A stretch of 5,386 nt of DNA from the NCBI GenBank assembly GCA_964522265.1, contig CAZFVS010000075.1, forward strand, positions 1-5,386. Direction: 5' to 3'. Both the position numbers and the translations under genes were made by a program. This DNA is from an uncultured Gammaproteobacteria bacterium (GTDB lineage Bacteria > Patescibacteriota > Microgenomatia > Daviesbacterales > UBA10151). Of the stretch, positions 129 through 5,386 are shown piece after piece. Every line of letters starts with the position of its first letter. The first letter of the stretch is position 1. The notes below the pieces were generated by a model, which had not been told where the DNA came from, made no database searches, and saw nothing but the letters and a program-made list of their open reading frames with translations.

Positions 129-1382
129 GTGGGCTTGCCCCACCTTTTTGTTTATATGCCGATACAAGCTAGAACAGAATTTGCAGCTGCTTTAAACCAA
201 ATCGCTTCTGAAAAAGGGATTGATACAGCAGTGGTAATAGATGCTATCGAACAGGCAGCTTTGGCTGCATACCGCAAAGACCTCTCTTATAGAAATGAAC
301 CAATCCCGGATGATTTTGATACTCTTTCAGCCAAAATCAACCCTTCTTCAGGTGAGATAGGGATTTATAGAGGTGAAGTTAACATCACCCCTCCGGGGTT
401 TGCCAGGATAGCGGCTCAAACAGCCAAGCAGGTGATTGCCCAAAAACTGCATGAAGCTGAAAAAGGGGCGATCATAGATGAATACGCCCAGAAGGTTAAT
501 ACGGTTATTTCAGGCGCCATACAAAGGCAGGAAGGCAACACTTATTTCGTAGATTTAGGCAGGGCAGAAGGGATTATGCCGCCATCCGAGCAGACCAGGA
601 ATGAATTTTACTCTCCAAACCAGCGCATGAAATTTTTCATTAAAGAGATTAGGGAGGATGGCAAGGGGTCTGAAGTGGTGGTGTCCCGCTCTGATCCGGC
701 ATTAGTCAAAGGGCTATTCGCCCTGGAGGTACCGGAAATCCAATCAGGTGCAGTGGAGATTAAAGATGTTGCCCGTGAAGCCGGGGGAAGAAGTAAGGTT
801 GCTGTTTTATCTCACCAGGATGGGGTTGATCCGGTGGGCAGTTTAGTCGGCCAGAAAGGGGTGAGGGTTCAAGCAGTCATAAATGAGCTCGGAGAGGAAA
901 AGATAGACATTATCGCCTATTCGGAAGATCCGGCCCATTTTATTGCCGCCGCGTTGTCTCCGGCTAAAGATATGCAGGTTATTTTAAATGAAGAGATAAA
1001 GGAGGCGAAGGTAAAACTGCCTGAGAACCAATTATCGCTTGCTATAGGTAAAGGCGGGCAAAACGTGAGATTGGCCGCCAAACTGACGGGTTGGAAAATT
1101 GATATTGAAGGTAATAGTGAAAGCAGTGACAAGTTGTCCGCCTCCGCCGAAGCTTCAGCGGGCAAGCAAGAGTCTAGTCGCCAAAGACCCGTTGCTTCGC
1201 CGCGAGGCGAGCGAACCTCGCCAATGGCGGGAGTCCAGGAAGAAAATGAAAAAAAAGAAGAAGTAGAAAAGGAGCCAAAGGATGAAGACATCAAAAGAGA
1301 GAAGAAAGAGAAAGCTAAAAAAGAGAAAAAACTGAAAAAAACACTTGAGGCTGATAAAGTAAGTGAAAAGAAAAAAGAATGA
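129..1382 (+). CDS. nusA: Transcription termination/antitermination factor NusA
   Basis: Long ORF with recognisable NusA architecture. N-terminal helix region: EFAAALNQIASEKGID...AAYRK. S1-like region: GAIQRQEGNTYFVDLGRAEGIMPPSEQ. KH1 with a GxxG motif: VGQKGVRVQAVINELGEEKIDII. KH2: LAIGKGGQNVRLAAKLTGWKIDI. It sits directly upstream of infB, as in most bacteria. The start is ambiguous: GTG 129 has the SD-like GGGTGA, while ATG 156 (MPIQARTEF...) has no SD but a more typical N-terminal length. Confidence 0.93.
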   Translation: MGLPHLFVYMPIQARTEFAAALNQIASEKGIDTAVVIDAIEQAALAAYRKDLSYRNEPIPDDFDTLSAKINPSSGEIGIYRGEVNITPPGFARIAAQTAKQVIAQKLHEAEKGAIIDEYAQKVNTVISGAIQRQEGNTYFVDLGRAEGIMPPSEQTRNEFYSPNQRMKFFIKEIREDGKGSEVVVSRSDPALVKGLFALEVPEIQSGAVEIKDVAREAGGRSKVAVLSHQDGVDPVGSLVGQKGVRVQAVINELGEEKIDIIAYSEDPAHFIAAALSPAKDMQVILNEEIKEAKVKLPENQLSLAIGKGGQNVRLAAKLTGWKIDIEGNSESSDKLSASAEASAGKQESSRQRPVASPRGERTSPMAGVQEENEKKEEVEKEPKDEDIKREKKEKAKKEKKLKKTLEADKVSEKKKE

Positions 1383-1465
1383 AAAGTTTATGAATTTTTT
1401 GCAACTCTTTAATTCTTAATTTCTAATCCTTGCTTTTTCAGATTCAATGTTGTCATTTTAAAAAT

Positions 1466-2968
1466 ATGGCAGAACAGACCAGACCGCCTATCGTAACAAT
1501 ATTAGGCCATGTTGATCATGGGAAGACCAGCCTGCTCGATTTTATCCGCAAATCAAGCGTGGCAGCGCGTGAACATGGAGGGATTACTCAACATATTGGT
1601 GCATATCAGGTTCGGATGTTAGAGGTCGGAAGTCAGAAATCAGAAAAAGAAACTGCAAACAACACTCCAGATACCAATCAGCTAATAACTTTTATAGACA
1701 CTCCGGGTCATGCTGCTTTTGAAAAGATGCGCTCAAGAGGGGCTAAAGTTGCTGACATCGCTGTACTGGTTGTGGCAGTAGATGATGGAGTGATGCCTCA
1801 AACAGTTGAAGCTATAAAACATATTTTGGAAGCCAAAATACCGATGATTGTAGCTTTAAACAAAATTGATCTGACAAGCATCGATATTAAGATCCAGACT
1901 GAAAAAATCAAAAAACAGCTGTCTGACCAGCAGGTTTTAGTTGAGCAGTATGGAGGCGATGTTCCGATCGTACCTGTTTCGGCAAAAACAGGGGTGGGGG
2001 TAGACAAGCTTTTGGAGATGATACTGCTGGTAGCAGAGCTGGGTGAGCTTAAAGGGGATCCTGATGCGCCGGTAACAGGAGTGGTGATTGAAGCCAGTAT
2101 TGACAAATTTAAAGGGCCAATTGCGACCCTGCTGATACGTAACGGTACTTTAAGGAAGGGGGGCCAAATAATGCTTGGCGGGGTTAAGAGTAAGATCAGA
2201 GGAATGTTTGATTTTGCGGGAAAACCTATTGACAGTGCAGGCCCCTCAGCGCCTGTTGAGGTATTGGGTTTGGAAAAAGTGCCTGAGGTTGGGGCGGTGT
2301 TAGGGGAAGAGTCAAGAGTTCAAGAGTCAAGTGAAACCAGATCTTTGATCGATAAACTGAGACAGGCTGATACAACAACTTTGAATGTGGTGATAAAAGC
2401 TGATAAACAGGGGTCACTGGAGGCAATTGAGGAAGCATTAAGCGGGTTTAATACCGAAGGTGAGCATGTAAAGGTTGTATCTACCGGGACAGGAGGCATT
2501 ATGGAATCAGATATAAAACTTGCTGCTTCAACAAGATCAATAGTAATAGGTTTTAACAGTCCTGTTGCGCCGACAGCTCAAAAAATTGCAGAGAATGAAC
2601 ATGTTTTAGTCAGGACTTATACCATAATTTATGAACTGATTGATGAAATAAAACAGGTGGTGGAGGAGATGTTAAAGGTAGGGGCGATTGAAGAGATTTT
2701 TGGGACCGCTCAGGTTATCGCTGAGTTTCCGTATGGTAAAAATGAGCGGATTGCAGGATGCAGAGTGTTGGATGGTCAGATTTCAAAAGGGCCAAAGGCA
2801 AGGGTTGTTAGGGGTGCGGCAGTTATCAGTGAAATGAAGATAAAGTCAATTAAAAAAGTCAAGGAAGAAGTAGTAAAGGTAGAAAAAGGGGATGAATGCG
2901 GGATGATGTTCGAGCCGCAGGTTGATTTCCAGATTGGGGATTTAGTGCAGAGTTTTAGAATATTATAG
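1466..2968 (+). CDS. infB: Translation initiation factor IF-2, short form beginning at the G domain
   Basis: RPPIVTILGHVDHGKTSLLD (P-loop), DTPGHAAF, NKID and SAK motifs in canonical order. These are followed by domain II, C1 (NVVIKADKQGSLEAI) and C2 (IAGCRVLDGQI...GDECGMMF...GDLV), collinear with bacterial IF-2. The ORF track opens at TTG 1430, but ATG 1466 (MAEQTRPP...) is 5 residues before the conserved RPP motif, so I prefer it. No SD precedes either start. Confidence 0.93.
   Translation: MAEQTRPPIVTILGHVDHGKTSLLDFIRKSSVAAREHGGITQHIGAYQVRMLEVGSQKSEKETANNTPDTNQLITFIDTPGHAAFEKMRSRGAKVADIAVLVVAVDDGVMPQTVEAIKHILEAKIPMIVALNKIDLTSIDIKIQTEKIKKQLSDQQVLVEQYGGDVPIVPVSAKTGVGVDKLLEMILLVAELGELKGDPDAPVTGVVIEASIDKFKGPIATLLIRNGTLRKGGQIMLGGVKSKIRGMFDFAGKPIDSAGPSAPVEVLGLEKVPEVGAVLGEESRVQESSETRSLIDKLRQADTTTLNVVIKADKQGSLEAIEEALSGFNTEGEHVKVVSTGTGGIMESDIKLAASTRSIVIGFNSPVAPTAQKIAENEHVLVRTYTIIYELIDEIKQVVEEMLKVGAIEEIFGTAQVIAEFPYGKNERIAGCRVLDGQISKGPKARVVRGAAVISEMKIKSIKKVKEEVVKVEKGDECGMMFEPQVDFQIGDLVQSFRIL
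2920..2956 (+). repeat. Left copy of a perfect 37-bp direct repeat (putative attL core), inside the infB 3' coding end
   Basis: GGTTGATTTCCAGATTGGGGATTTAGTGCAGAGTTTT at 2920..2956 is identical to 3839..3875, verified base by base at offset 919. Confidence 0.9.
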
Positions 2969-2974
2969 TATAAT
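2969..2974 (+). promoter_or_regulatory. Candidate -10 box (TATAAT) placed for a leaderless transcript of the 66-aa ORF
   Basis: Perfect TATAAT at 2969..2974, then 6 nt (AAAAAT), then ATG 2981. No SD is present. No convincing -35 element at 17 +/- 1 nt. Confidence 0.3.
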
Positions 2975-2980
2975 AAAAAT

Positions 2981-3181
2981 ATGGCTCTAGTTTGGGATTA
3001 TGACCAAAAAAAACTCCATAAAACCGAATCAGGCAAAATCTTACTGCTTGAAAGATTGATTAACTATGGCAGAGAGGGGAATAAGAGGATAAAACTGGAA
3101 GAAGTTAAAAAGCACTGGAGTAAATTACACCTCTTACCCCTCAGAAAGAAATTATTTCAGCTTCTAATATGGGGAAAATAA
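2981..3181 (+). CDS. Small basic protein (66 aa), putative partner/antitoxin of the downstream AbiEii-like nucleotidyltransferase
   Basis: The ORF overlaps the downstream gene by 13 nt (ATG 3169, TAA 3179..3181), which suggests translational coupling. By my count it has 16 K/R versus 7 D/E. The pattern WDYD..KL......LLERLINYG...W..L.L resembles, from memory only, small proteins found upstream of DUF1814 nucleotidyltransferases. It is far too short to be a canonical AbiEi. Confidence 0.6.
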   Translation: MALVWDYDQKKLHKTESGKILLLERLINYGREGNKRIKLEEVKKHWSKLHLLPLRKKLFQLLIWGK

Positions 3182-3825
3182 CTATTATTTCTTCTGAGCA
3201 AAAGCTATTACTTTCTGAATTTGCAGCAGACACATTTTTTAGTGCTAATTTTTATTTTTCCGGAGGGACTGCCCTATCTTTATATTATCTTAACCACCGT
3301 ATTTCAGTTGACCTGGATTTTTTTTCAGAACAAGAATTCAACTCTCAAACTATATTAACAAAATTAAATCTTTTAAAAAATAAATACCACTTTAAAATTG
3401 AGTATGTCCCGGCTGAAGAAACTCAAGTTTATATTTTAACTTTCCCTAAACAAAATGCAGTCAAGATAGATTTTGCATTTTATCCTTATAAAAGACTTAA
3501 ACCTTCAATTGTAAAAGATGGGGTTAAAGTTGACAGTTTATTTGATATTGCTGCCAATAAGTTATTGATGACAGAACAGAGAGCAGAAGTGAAAGATTTT
3601 GTTGACCTTTATTTTCTTTTAAAAAGATTTACAATTTGGGATTTAATAGGAGGAGTACATAAAAAGTTTGGATTAAAAACTGATCCGCTACTCATAGCTT
3701 CAAATTTTTTAAAGGTAGAGTCTTTTGAATATCTTCCTAAGATGATTTTGCCGTTAACTTTAGATGAGCTAAAAGATTATTTTAGAGATTTGGCAAAAAA
3801 AATTGGGGGTAAATTAGTTGAATGA
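3169..3825 (+). CDS. Nucleotidyltransferase, AbiEii/AbiGii (DUF1814) toxin family
   Basis: The N-terminal motif FSGGTALSLYYLNHRISVDLDFF matches the family signature GGTAL...R.S.DhDF. The C-terminal motif IAANKLLMTEQRAEVKDFVDLYFLL matches the K....R....D..DL signature. At 218 aa it is at the short end of the family. Confidence 0.85.
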   Translation: MGKITIISSEQKLLLSEFAADTFFSANFYFSGGTALSLYYLNHRISVDLDFFSEQEFNSQTILTKLNLLKNKYHFKIEYVPAEETQVYILTFPKQNAVKIDFAFYPYKRLKPSIVKDGVKVDSLFDIAANKLLMTEQRAEVKDFVDLYFLLKRFTIWDLIGGVHKKFGLKTDPLLIASNFLKVESFEYLPKMILPLTLDELKDYFRDLAKKIGGKLVE

Positions 3826-3887
3826 ATTTAGAATGTCTGGTTGATTTCCAGATTGGGGATTTAGTGCAGAGTTTTCGGACTCTTTGA
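3822..3887 (+). pseudogene. infB: Displaced 3' fragment of infB (probable original gene end); reads MNLECLVDFQIGDLVQSFRTL*
   Basis: In the frame of the repeat, 3840..3887 encodes VDFQIGDLVQSFRTL*, against VDFQIGDLVQSFRIL* at 2921..2968. Weaker similarity extends 18 nt upstream: ATG AAT TTA GAA TGT CTG versus ATG ATG TTC GAG CCG CAG, 10/18 identical, M-x-[L/F]-E retained. There is no upstream IF-2 coding sequence, so it is not a functional gene. Confidence 0.8.
3839..3875 (+). repeat. Right copy of the perfect 37-bp direct repeat (putative attR core)
   Basis: Identical to 2920..2956. It begins 13 nt after the stop codon of the nucleotidyltransferase gene. Confidence 0.9.
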
Positions 3888-3952
3888 GGAGTTTTGACAG
3901 TTACAAGAAAAGTTGATTAAAGTCAGAATCTCGTCAGAAAAAAGTGCCAATT

Positions 3953-3981
3953 TTGTCAAGTATTTTTGTAGGAATTAGATT
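3953..3981 (+). promoter_or_regulatory. Weak candidate promoter for the 164-aa ORF (TTGTCA - 17 nt - TAGATT)
   Basis: TTGTCA at 3953..3958 and TAGATT at 3976..3981. AGGAG at 3994..3998 lies 12 nt before ATG 4011. Motif match only. Confidence 0.25.
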
Positions 3982-4010
3982 ATAAATAGCGGCAGGAGAT
4001 TCATTGTCGT

Positions 4011-4505
4011 ATGTATCATGAAAAAGAAAGTGCTATATCAGCAGTACTAGCTGCCAATGCTCTAGTTCCTCCCGAACAATTTCAAATCTTGCAAGGTGCT
4101 ATTGGCCAGGAAGTCGCAATGGAATACCATTTTCGTAGAGATTATTCAGATGAAGCTGACGGAAATACACCGGATGATTTTGAAACAATAGAAAGGTTTA
4201 TTTTAAAAGACGTTAGTTTTGTTAGGCATCCGAGGACTAATCTCAAATATTTGGCTTTTTTTAGAAATGTTAAAGATGATGCAGTATATTTCCCTTATTG
4301 GAGTTCAGAGAATGTGTTTGGAGATTATACAAATGTGCAAATTTATAATCTACAGAATTCTTCCGGAGAAGTGCTATGGAGTTTTAATTCTCCCGGGGCG
4401 AGGATAACCACCAGGGGGAACCCGGCAACTAATGATGAAATTGGGCAGGCGATCATAGATTGTTCCGAAAGCATGTTAGCTTTAAAAGTAAAACAGGGAA
4501 AATAA
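4011..4505 (+). CDS. Hypothetical protein, 164 aa, no family recognised
   Basis: Uninterrupted 495-nt ORF with an AGGAG SD upstream. The residue mix is ordinary and not low-complexity. I see no signal peptide or TM segment and recognise no conserved motif. Confidence 0.65.
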   Translation: MYHEKESAISAVLAANALVPPEQFQILQGAIGQEVAMEYHFRRDYSDEADGNTPDDFETIERFILKDVSFVRHPRTNLKYLAFFRNVKDDAVYFPYWSSENVFGDYTNVQIYNLQNSSGEVLWSFNSPGARITTRGNPATNDEIGQAIIDCSESMLALKVKQGK

Positions 4506-4511
4506 TCTATG

Positions 4512-5294
4512 CTACGGTACAAATTCCAAAATCATTGGCAGATGGTCTGAAACTGTAACTTGCGGAACCTGAAATGTTATTACCTCAACATCTTTTGACA
4601 CAAAAGTGTAGTCCGCAAATTTTTGCTCATCAGGTTGGTTATAAAAAGGGCTTAACTTGCTTCTGGTCCTTTTTATATTAAACTCCTTGATTAAATCCCT
4701 AAGTTTATTTTCCAAAATAGCCATGCTTTTGGTTTGCGGCATTAAGTTAAAATCCCCGCAGATAATTTTTGCCCCTGTATGATTATCTGAAAATTTCAGG
4801 ATTCTTTCTAATTGTTTGATCCTGTCTTTGGTATCTAACTTATCTCCCGGGTACCAGATTCCATGACAATTGCAGATTAAAATTTTTTTACCGTTTACCC
4901 GGAAATTGACAAACTGTAAGTTAACCGGTGCGCCTTTGGTGTCATTTTCCAGATGGGCAAACCTTCTCCTGTACACAAAATAATCACCTTCATTGTCAAT
5001 TTTAATGCTTCTTTTAACAAACATGCCTAAACCTGAGGTTAAATTATATTTAGCCCTGCCCTTGTCATCTATCCCCTCAAAAGCAGGGTAATAAAATTTA
5101 TGGAAATCCAAAAAAAGATTTGAGAGATCCTGCCAAAGGTCAGCACGGATATCGTGGCTTAAATTTAGATGGTCTTTAGTATCAAATACTTCTTGGAAGC
5201 AGAAGATATCTATAGTTGAAATCTGTTGTGTCAGATACTCCATCAAAGGCCCAAAATCTTTACCTCCCCAAAGGTTCAATGATAAAAGTTTCAT
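4512..5294 (-). CDS. Endonuclease/exonuclease/phosphatase (EEP, DNase I-like fold) family protein
   Basis: The ordered EEP signature set is present: MKLLSLNLWGG (N), FCFQEV (catalytic E), CNCHG, ICGDFN (D, N) and VSDHLPMILEF (D-H). The ORF track opens at TTG 5309, but ATG 5294 (MKLLSLN...) gives the typical family N-terminus. No signal peptide. Confidence 0.85.
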   Translation of the reverse strand: MKLLSLNLWGGKDFGPLMEYLTQQISTIDIFCFQEVFDTKDHLNLSHDIRADLWQDLSNLFLDFHKFYYPAFEGIDDKGRAKYNLTSGLGMFVKRSIKIDNEGDYFVYRRRFAHLENDTKGAPVNLQFVNFRVNGKKILICNCHGIWYPGDKLDTKDRIKQLERILKFSDNHTGAKIICGDFNLMPQTKSMAILENKLRDLIKEFNIKRTRSKLSPFYNQPDEQKFADYTFVSKDVEVITFQVPQVTVSDHLPMILEFVP

Positions 5295-5300
5295 AGTCTG

Positions 5301-5306
5301 ATTATA
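5301..5306 (-). promoter_or_regulatory. Candidate -10 box (TATAAT on the minus strand) placed for a leaderless EEP transcript
   Basis: The minus strand reads GTTGTATAATCAGACTATGAAA: a perfect TATAAT, 6 nt, then ATG 5294. No SD. The nearest -35-like TTGGAA is 20 nt away, which is too far. Confidence 0.3.
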
Positions 5307-5386
5307 CAACTGTTTGCTTGTGGCATTTCCAATTCAGAGTTTGGTGCAAAACCACAATTAGATCACCCCAGCAATCCATAACTTTC

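Follow-up and report, generated by a model that had tools for sequence, protein, structure and literature searches.

A two-gene cassette behind infB in a Daviesbacterales genome is likely to be a toxin-antitoxin module combining an AbiEii-family nucleotidyltransferase with a 66-residue basic protein

The subject of this study is a pair of overlapping genes at positions 2981-3825 on the + strand of contig CAZFVS010000075.1 (assembly GCA_964522265.1), whose whole length of 5,386 nt is hereafter called the window. The first gene encodes a basic protein of 66 amino acids (aa) and the second one a 218-aa nucleotidyltransferase of the AbiEii/DUF1814 family. We consider it likely that positions 2969-3825 constitute a compact and self-sufficient toxin-antitoxin (TA) cassette of two genes, in which a DUF1814 toxin and its cognate 66-aa antitoxin are expressed as a leaderless bicistron, and that this cassette spreads horizontally. 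The positions of the features are collected in Table 1; the coordinates of both open reading frames (ORFs) and the 13-nt overlap between them, as given in a preliminary description of this DNA, proved to be exact.

The assignment of the 218-aa protein to AbiEii, already proposed in the preliminary description, is borne out by profile matches, motifs and fold alike. The protein scored 66.5 bits against Pfam PF08843 AbiEii (gathering cut-off 22.5; E=4.6e-18) and was matched by 21 AbiEii models of PADLOC. Mutagenesis has revealed that the toxicity of AbiEii needs four motifs, namely the Pol-beta catalytic motifs I and II (hG[G/S]...R..DhD), motif III (K...R) and motif IV (+DxxD) (PMC3985639). All four of them were found in the window protein, where the motif residues are G32-G33, H43-R44-x-S46-x-D48-L-D50, N130-K131...R138 and K142-D143-F-V-D146, with K99-x-D101 in addition. 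The absence of catalytic nucleotidyltransferase residues had been named as grounds for abandoning the assignment; these residues are present, and the motif residues, S46 included, are invariant across two alignments of homologues (n=120 and n=68). The AlphaFold2 (AF2) model of the toxin (predicted local distance difference test score, pLDDT, 94.7; predicted template modelling score, pTM, 0.89) was aligned by Foldseek to three structures in the PDB, each with a probability of 1.00: JHP933 of H. pylori (E=2e-8, TM 0.58), MenT3 (6y5u, E~1e-6) and MenT1 (8an4, E~8e-5). When the sequence profile was compared with the PDB, JHP933 was the sole match (E=1.9e-6). The ratio of nonsynonymous to synonymous divergence (dN/dS) of the toxin gene in comparison to its closest relative was 0.08, which together with the intact motifs indicates that the toxin is an intact DUF1814 enzyme under purifying selection. 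The median isoelectric point (pI) of the toxin family is 6.4. The protein had been described as short for a toxin of this kind, and at 218 aa it is, yet it is close in size to MenT1 (~195 aa) and JHP933 (~230 aa). By homology with MenT1, MenT3, MenT4 and AbiEii, it is expected to nucleotidylate the 3' acceptor ends of tRNA and thereby to stop translation.

The 66-aa partner is as strongly basic as had been stated (pI 10.1, net charge +8.8), and the median pI of its family is 9.7. The claim that it is not AbiEi also stands. It is only 66 aa long, matched no AbiEi model of Pfam or PADLOC at E<=1 and lacks the COG5340 architecture of a winged helix-turn-helix (wHTH) followed by a C-terminal domain (CTD), and its AF2 model contains no beta wing; thus, the AbiEi identity could be ruled out. 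Searches against Pfam, NCBIfam and PADLOC gave no match above threshold. A helix-turn-helix (HTH) identity was rejected as well, the protein being too short and without a match to HTH_3. Where database entries name the protein, they call it a 'hypothetical protein'. The AF2 model (pLDDT 87.8) is compact and all-helical, with helices at residues 9-12, 16-29, 39-48 and 53-64, and Foldseek revealed no similar fold in the PDB and BFVD (best E 2-3).

A search with the single sequence uncovered 27 homologues of the small protein, whereas with a profile the family grew to 1,332 clusters or more (90% identity), every one of them from Patescibacteria (Microgenomates). When 1.84 billion representatives were scanned exhaustively with HMMER, 118 clusters at 50% identity were returned, nearly all of them encoding proteins of 55-110 aa. 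The close family has 13 invariant residues (W5, D6, Y7, G18, L23, E24, R25, N28, G30, I37, W46, L62 and W64), and the wider family retains W5, G30 and the LE(R/Q)xIN(Y/F)G core. The dN/dS of the small gene relative to the closest relative was 0.23. At many loci (L012, L013, L018 and some 30 others) the small ORF extends ~40 nt further into the toxin gene and encodes a family member of 77-85 aa; these proteins carry an added tail such as YKSSPKNNKSFWMK, and the overlap is lengthened to 52-55 nt. The preliminary description had allowed for the case that the 66-aa ORF has no conserved homologues, which the clusters and invariant residues contradict. They also refute the idea that this ORF arose by chance or was miscalled and that the toxin gene stands by itself. 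Gene callers do sometimes skip the small gene, and at locus L170 it was skipped altogether; however, the family is conserved to ~30% identity with synonymous variation and its AF2 model is confident, so that this explanation can practically be dismissed. The best reading of the sequence data is that the small protein represents a large, hitherto unnamed family of putative antitoxins, confined to Patescibacteria, which stands in place of the two-domain AbiEi.

The pairing of the two genes was assessed in two sets of loci. The close-family set comprised 80 loci from GTDB species representatives, all of them Microgenomates-type Patescibacteria, of which 77 had enough downstream sequence, and the distant-clade set 80 metagenome loci encoding a small protein 32-40% identical to that of the window, of which 72 were usable. 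An intact gene for an AbiEii protein of ~218 aa started inside or just after the small gene at about 66 of the 77 close-family loci, while at 7 it was frameshifted or truncated and at 3-4 there was none. The corresponding numbers in the distant clade were about 60 with an intact toxin, 4 with a decayed one and 8 with none. In both clades, therefore, ~85% of the usable small-gene loci have an intact AbiEii gene directly downstream. Conversely, when we started from the toxin, the small gene was found upstream in all five look-ups, including the one left unannotated at L170. The co-occurrence check suggested in the preliminary description was thus carried out in three ways, and all of them revealed tight linkage. 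The small gene overlaps the toxin gene in 64 of 66 close-family loci; the main classes of overlap are 13 nt and 52-55 nt, the latter being due to 13 additional C-terminal residues in the small protein. Moreover, the pairwise distances of the small protein and of the toxin are correlated (r=0.81), and one contig (L011, 1312-5583) carries three small-gene/AbiEii pairs in tandem, with one small gene for each toxin.

The loci with a degraded toxin gene are informative about the direction of the dependence. About 11 loci have an intact small gene beside a frameshifted, internally deleted or truncated toxin gene (L029, L033, L037, L055, L075, L079, L089, L102, L156, L160 and L167), and at about 11 further loci the small gene stands alone. 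No toxin without the small gene was seen in the five toxin-anchored look-ups. Survival of small genes beside dead or missing toxins, with the reverse not seen, is what is predicted of a TA system with orphan antitoxins and differs from what is predicted of an obligate two-subunit enzyme. The genetic layout of type II-like systems is thus present: a small upstream gene, overlapping, co-oriented and co-occurring with its partner, and orphan antitoxins without orphan toxins.

These data bear on the alternative that the pair makes up an enzyme or defence effector of two subunits, with the small protein serving as an activator, a specificity subunit or a sensor. Strict co-occurrence and co-evolution would also fit an obligate heteromer, and some DUF1814 proteins are not linked to antitoxins (PMC3985639). 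However, an accessory subunit should not outlast its enzyme as the small gene does at the loci listed above, no toxin lacking the small gene turned up, and the layout with a small upstream gene, overlap, mobility and multiple copies follows the grammar of type II TA systems. We therefore regard a two-subunit enzyme as decidedly unlikely.

Several other observations concern the surroundings of the small gene. At L173 (1017-3157) the gene pair adjoins BrnT/BrnA-type modules; this neighbourhood and the tandem array of L011 look like TA islands in genomes of the candidate phyla radiation (CPR). In the distant clade, a gene for a NYN-domain or GIY-YIG nuclease occupies the place of AbiEii after the small gene at L131 (2737-3282) and L095 (1472-1753), which may reflect partner swapping or insertion. 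The title 'uncultured Gammaproteobacteria bacterium' is borne by many GTDB contigs with this Patescibacteria-type cassette (L011, L015, L017 and further TPA_asm records); it is implausible and is probably a placeholder or a mislabel.

Comparison with known systems places the pair on a familiar toxin scaffold. In MenAT1 of M. tuberculosis (Rv0078B/Rv0078A) the ~195-aa DUF1814 toxin MenT1 is accompanied by the 68-aa antitoxin MenA1 (PMC10435456). The window shares with MenAT1 a short toxin (218 versus ~195 aa) located after a very short antitoxin (66 versus 68 aa) without a recognisable DNA-binding domain, the toxin fold (8an4/8an5, Foldseek E=8e-5) and a Ser/Thr two residues before the first catalytic Asp, although the window toxin is closer to JHP933 than to MenT1. 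The small partners are different. MenA1, a V of two helices with predicted partial disorder, binds asymmetrically across two MenT1 protomers and has ~21 known homologues (PMC10435456), whereas the small protein of the window is modelled as a compact four-helix unit and its family comprises more than 1,300 clusters. Homology between the two was ruled out, as the small protein matched neither 8an5 nor any other PDB entry by sequence or profile at E<=10, and none by Foldseek.

With AbiE of S. agalactiae and Lactococcus and with MenAT3 and MenAT4 the window has in common the toxin family, the four motifs and a bicistronic operon with overlapping genes and the antitoxin gene first. In those systems, however, the partner is a COG5340 protein of 200-300 aa (wHTH+CTD), and the window toxin is 60-80 residues shorter than theirs. 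The window also differs from these systems in that -35/-10 operator repeats of the AbiEi type are not visible there and its transcript is presumably leaderless. JHP933 (PDB 4o8s, 4ok0), which among solved relatives is nearest to the toxin in both sequence and fold, shares the R-x-S-x-D-L-D-F motif; it has no described antitoxin or function, and its identity to the toxin is only ~21%. The statement of the preliminary description that AbiEii is normally preceded by AbiEi consequently holds for AbiE, MenAT3 and MenAT4 but not in general, given MenA1 and the HTH_3+DUF6922 partners discussed below. Likewise, the proposed 'candidate minimal variant' is not without parallel, since a short partner of a DUF1814 toxin has a precedent in the 68-aa MenA1 (PMC10435456). 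What is new in the pair is the family of the putative antitoxin, whereas its toxin scaffold was known before, and it does not amount to a new kind of system; partner swapping is already known for DUF1814 toxins.

A possible origin of the small protein is suggested by DUF6922 (PF21956). Nine of 28 family members gave sub-threshold Pfam matches to this domain (best E=6.5e-4), with residues ~3-35 aligned to the start of the model; the window protein itself scored 12.6 bits, the cut-off being 27. Alignment of the family with three DUF6922 domains by hhalign brought out a common WDxD...W-x-L-x-R-x-h-x-Y-G pattern over 29 columns (P=0.018), while reciprocal searches with hidden Markov models of the small-protein family and DUF6922 were not significant, and a literature search for DUF6922 yielded nothing relevant. 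On Bacteroidota plasmids of B. fragilis, P. vulgatus and Microscilla, the gene directly upstream of an AbiEii gene encodes an Xre-type HTH_3 protein (Table 1). It shares 4 nt with the AbiEii gene in B. fragilis and P. vulgatus (L178 and L180), and in L177 the annotated genes are separated by a gap of 63 nt. HTH_3 is followed by a full-scoring DUF6922 (Pfam, E~1e-21) in the B. fragilis and Microscilla proteins (L178 and L177), whereas in the Phocaeicola partner (L180) DUF6922 is recognised by similarity only: over 72/73 residues it shares 58% identity with the B. fragilis domain, and it aligns with both others. The location of DUF6922 in proteins encoded directly upstream of AbiEii implies that this domain partners toxins of the AbiEii family. 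Judging from other antitoxins composed of an HTH and a toxin-binding domain, it is probably the toxin-binding part of a further class of AbiEii antitoxins. The small protein of the window shares with these Bacteroidota proteins the position directly upstream of an AbiEii-family gene, and the N-terminal half of its family aligns to DUF6922, below threshold, through WDxD...W.LxRxhxYG; the Bacteroidota proteins differ in possessing an HTH domain and being three times the size, and they are known from annotation only. On these alignments, which fall short of statistical security given the non-significant reciprocal searches, we lean towards homology of the small protein with DUF6922. If this is correct, the CPR protein would be a toxin-binding module freed of its DNA-binding domain, which would fit a simple constitutive promoter.

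Upstream of the small gene, a TAnnnT hexamer was present 4-10 nt (mode 6) before the start codon in 72 of 78 close-family and 61 of 66 distant-clade loci, whereas in a control shifted by 40 nt the hexamer occurred in 13 of 78 and 11 of 66, respectively. This -10-like hexamer is often preceded by TG (TGnTAnnnT). A sequence resembling a Shine-Dalgarno (SD) element was detected before the small gene at one locus in each set. The combination of a -10 hexamer with no SD is kept in >90% of the loci of two deeply diverged clades (window 2969-2983; L010-L169). From this pattern we infer that the mRNA of the small gene is a leaderless bicistron transcribed from an (extended) -10 promoter; in the window, the -10 element 6 nt before the ATG would drive its synthesis. 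The ATG of the toxin gene also has no SD and is located within the end of the small gene, which points to translational coupling. Translation of the toxin by coupling via the 13-nt overlap would keep the antitoxin in excess.

The promoter region is also where the small protein could act if it were a DNA-binding repressor of the operon and nothing else, with a host factor or the level of its expression keeping the toxin in check. Autoregulation is known of AbiEi and of most type II antitoxins, a palindrome of 7+7 nt (TATTATA-G-TATAATA) overlaps the -10 element, and the protein is strongly basic and all-helical. Nevertheless, it matched no model of an HTH, ribbon-helix-helix or other DNA-binding domain and no fold of DNA-binding domains, and the upstream sequences of related cassettes have only the -10 hexamer in common, with no conserved operator visible. 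Moreover, DUF6922 of Bacteroidota, to which it is possibly related, is fused to a separate HTH_3, suggesting that DUF6922 is not the DNA-binding part, and the decay of toxins beside intact small genes fits a dependency at the level of proteins. A role as a repressor only is therefore, in our view, unlikely.

An antitoxin acting on the toxin itself would be in line with the systems of related toxins. MenA1 induces the auto-phosphorylation of MenT1 at T39 (PMC11375011), and the same mechanism has been proposed for MenA3/MenT3 (S78). A 2026 preprint proposed auto-phosphorylation (T65) for AbiEi/AbiEii too, reported a toxin-antitoxin complex and moved AbiE to type VII (bioRxiv 10.64898/2026.01.19.700257); the type IV label used for AbiE in the preliminary description is hence under revision. 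In the window toxin, R44-x-S46-x-D48-x-D50 is in register with R76-x-S78-x-D80 of MenT3, T39-x-D41 of MenT1 and R63-x-T65-x-D67 of AbiEii. Since S46 is invariant and in register, control by auto-phosphorylation is a route open to the window toxin. By analogy with these systems, the 66-aa protein would most likely bind the toxin directly near its active site, and its binding may, in the manner of MenA1/MenT1, MenA3/MenT3 and AbiEi/AbiEii, also trigger auto-phosphorylation of Ser46, which is located two positions ahead of the first catalytic Asp.

Alternatively, the small protein might shield the target of the toxin (e.g., tRNA acceptor ends or the ribosome) and not bind the toxin at all, which would make the pair a true type IV system. 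Its basic charge would suit RNA binding, and AbiE was first classed as type IV (PMC3985639). However, AbiE has on re-examination been found to form a toxin-antitoxin complex (bioRxiv 10.64898/2026.01.19.700257), it is implausible that a 66-aa protein with weak expression shields the entire tRNA pool stoichiometrically, and the cognate pairing in the tandem array of L011 favours toxin-specific recognition. Target shielding thus appears very unlikely.

The preliminary description also held that the gene pair is the sole cargo of a mobile cassette. This is upheld: the flanking direct repeats enclose only these two genes, and the divergence data support horizontal movement. The repeat in the window is 37 nt of exact identity within a 54-nt repeat at 85% identity, with diverged ends. 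It represents the 3' end of infB, which is completed by copy 1, while copy 2 still reads VDFQIGDLVQSFRTL up to the stop. The GC content drops from 0.42-0.50 in infB to ~0.29 across the gene pair. An infB site without the cassette would read ...CAGAGTTTTCGGACTCTTTGAGGAG, and the junction of an excised circle would join position 3821 to 2969. The Daviesbacteria locus L001 has the same cassette at the same place, after the infB orthologue, and its homology with the window ends directly after repeat copy 2. Synonymous divergence (dS) between these two loci was 1.5 for nusA and 1.1 for infB but only 0.14 for the small gene and 0.31 for the toxin gene. Since the dS of the cassette is far below that of its flanks, the cassette must have entered or been exchanged between the lineages long after their split. 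Downstream of repeat copy 2 the sequences of these otherwise syntenic Daviesbacteria loci are unrelated (window 3880-5386 versus L001 6906-10400), L001 having four other ORFs before rpsO-pnp where the window has the 164-aa ORF and the nuclease gene; the site after infB is thus a variable region.

Flanking repeats were scored at 59 loci with adequate flanks against 300 controls made of mismatched pairs, and at about 14 of them the score was at or above the maximum of the controls. The repeats (flanking-repeat loci: the window, L001, L014, L015, L020, L032, L034, L039, L052, L082, L083 and L085) are 16 to >100 nt long and have a different sequence at each site. They correspond to the 3' ends of upstream genes (infB, guaA, rnc and an ASCH gene) or to the 5' ends of downstream genes (a SpoU methylase and a membrane protein), and at repeat-flanked sites one copy always completes an intact gene. 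Of 88 mismatches between repeat copies, 55 fall on third codon positions (p=2e-8), and all 7 differences between the copies of L001 are synonymous. As the mismatches lie mostly at third codon positions, the repeat copies look like two alleles of a coding segment and not like a drifted duplication. These third-position mismatches, together with a cassette far younger than its flanks, rule out a plain duplication of the target site whose relic then drifted neutrally. The classical transposon or integrase model could be discarded as well, because the repeats enclose two genes only, there is no recombinase, terminal inverted repeats are absent and the repeat length depends on the site. In the window, copy 2 might be taken for a coupled third gene, as this mini-ORF of 21 codons overlaps the toxin stop by ATGA, but the corresponding frame of L001 has no start codon; it is probably a relic infB tail and not a gene.

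The following model of mobility is consistent with these observations. The cassette, carrying along part of the gene next to it in the donor, would pass from one related genome to another and insert at gene ends. Insertion would proceed through either homologous or homology-facilitated illegitimate recombination and leave an intact gene copy and a duplicated fragment. Post-segregational killing may then guard the cassette against loss via recombination between the repeats. No match to plasmids was obtained by tblastn with a distant member of the small-protein family, and a search of IMG/VR viral contigs with the toxin profile found no relatives; the AbiEii relatives of the toxin that occur on plasmids are 27-35% identical and have other partners. 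A literature search for repeat-flanked TA cassettes gave nothing relevant.

Several points weigh against the interpretation of the cassette as a mobile TA module. Toxicity, rescue, binding and phosphorylation are all inferred for this pair by analogy with its relatives. An antitoxin element that plugs a nucleic-acid-binding cleft is as a rule acidic, and the strongly basic small protein could instead bind DNA or RNA. Its modelled structure, with no fold match in the PDB (best E=3), yields no hint of its function. Ser/Thr at the phospho-acceptor position is general to DUF1814 proteins and found also in JHP933, so it is permissive and not diagnostic. The integration model leaves the origin of the repeat at a new site unexplained. 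Finally, MenT1 is not toxic in E. coli (PMC10435456), which implies that the toxicity of short DUF1814 proteins is host-dependent. With these points taken into account we still hold the two-gene TA cassette to be likely, whereas a scenario that joins all the proposals seems doubtful. It would describe a recombinase-free selfish element of ~0.85 kb (-10 box, leaderless antitoxin and coupled toxin) which moves with a housekeeping-gene fragment between related CPR genomes, integrates at gene ends with duplication of 16 to >100 nt and is locked in since repeat-mediated loss kills the cell, and whose antitoxin is a free-standing DUF6922 toxin-binding module of a new fold that induces auto-phosphorylation of Ser46.

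Table 1. Features of the window and genes encoding HTH_3 partners of AbiEii on Bacteroidota plasmids (positions of the latter refer to their own loci)
Feature	Position	Strand	Basis or remark
nusA	129-1382		Pfam and ORF list
infB (initiation factor 2, IF2; short CPR form)	1430..2968	+	Pfam GTP_EFTU, IF-2, EF-G_D2; 3' end is the insertion target
Direct-repeat copy 1, functional last 21 codons and stop of infB	2903..2968	+	Exact core 2920-2956; reads ...MMFEPQVDFQIGDLVQSFRIL, then stop
TATAAT -10 hexamer	2969..2974	+	6 nt before small-gene ATG; no SD
Small gene, 66-aa basic all-helical putative antitoxin, ATG start	2981..3181	+	ORF list, homologues, AF2
Overlap of small-gene stop with toxin start, 13 nt	3169..3181	+	Sequence ATGGGGAAAATAA
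Toxin gene, 218-aa AbiEii/DUF1814 nucleotidyltransferase, putative toxin, ATG start	3169..3825	+	Pfam, PADLOC, motifs, AF2
Direct-repeat copy 2, displaced native infB 3' end (mini-ORF)	3822..3887	+	Reads MNLECLVDFQIGDLVQSFRTL, then stop; exact core 3839-3875
164-aa ORF, no family assigned	4011-4505		ORF list and Pfam
Endonuclease/exonuclease/phosphatase (EEP) nuclease gene	4512-5309	-	Pfam
HTH_3(+DUF6922) gene, B. fragilis NZ_CP054002 (L178)	902-1426
HTH_3(+DUF6922) gene, P. vulgatus NZ_CP096966 (L180)	1207-1722
HTH_3(+DUF6922) gene, Microscilla pSD15 (L177)	970-1449

The housekeeping genes upstream of the cassette have some features of their own. NusA of the window has a long C-terminal tail (1051-1382), rich in Lys/Glu and of low complexity, where the AT skew peaks at 0.5. 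The long N-terminal region that IF2 has in well-studied bacteria is missing from infB, whose true start is probably an ATG 36 nt inside the listed TTG ORF. An Rfam scan of the window matched no RNA element.

Toxins of the DUF1814/AbiEii/MenT group are a current focus of TA research on account of their modification of tRNA acceptor ends and of antitoxin-induced auto-phosphorylation. Their antitoxins are known to be diverse and poorly catalogued, and the small-protein family adds to them a large unannotated class of partners, with more than 1,300 clusters. In the window, PADLOC found AbiEii but not its partner. This implies that tools requiring AbiEi would not call such modules, and the TA and defence content of CPR genomes would then be under-counted. 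Being small (66 + 218 aa) and confidently modelled, the pair is an attractive minimal system in which to test the universality of induced auto-phosphorylation among DUF1814 toxins. The least expected aspect of the cassette is its mobility, which is recombinase-free and duplicates gene ends. Two of the features described here bear on the way in which streamlined genomes take up and keep selfish genes: leaderless expression, which is conserved, and insertion into the ends of essential genes, where the duplicated fragments resemble foreign alleles.

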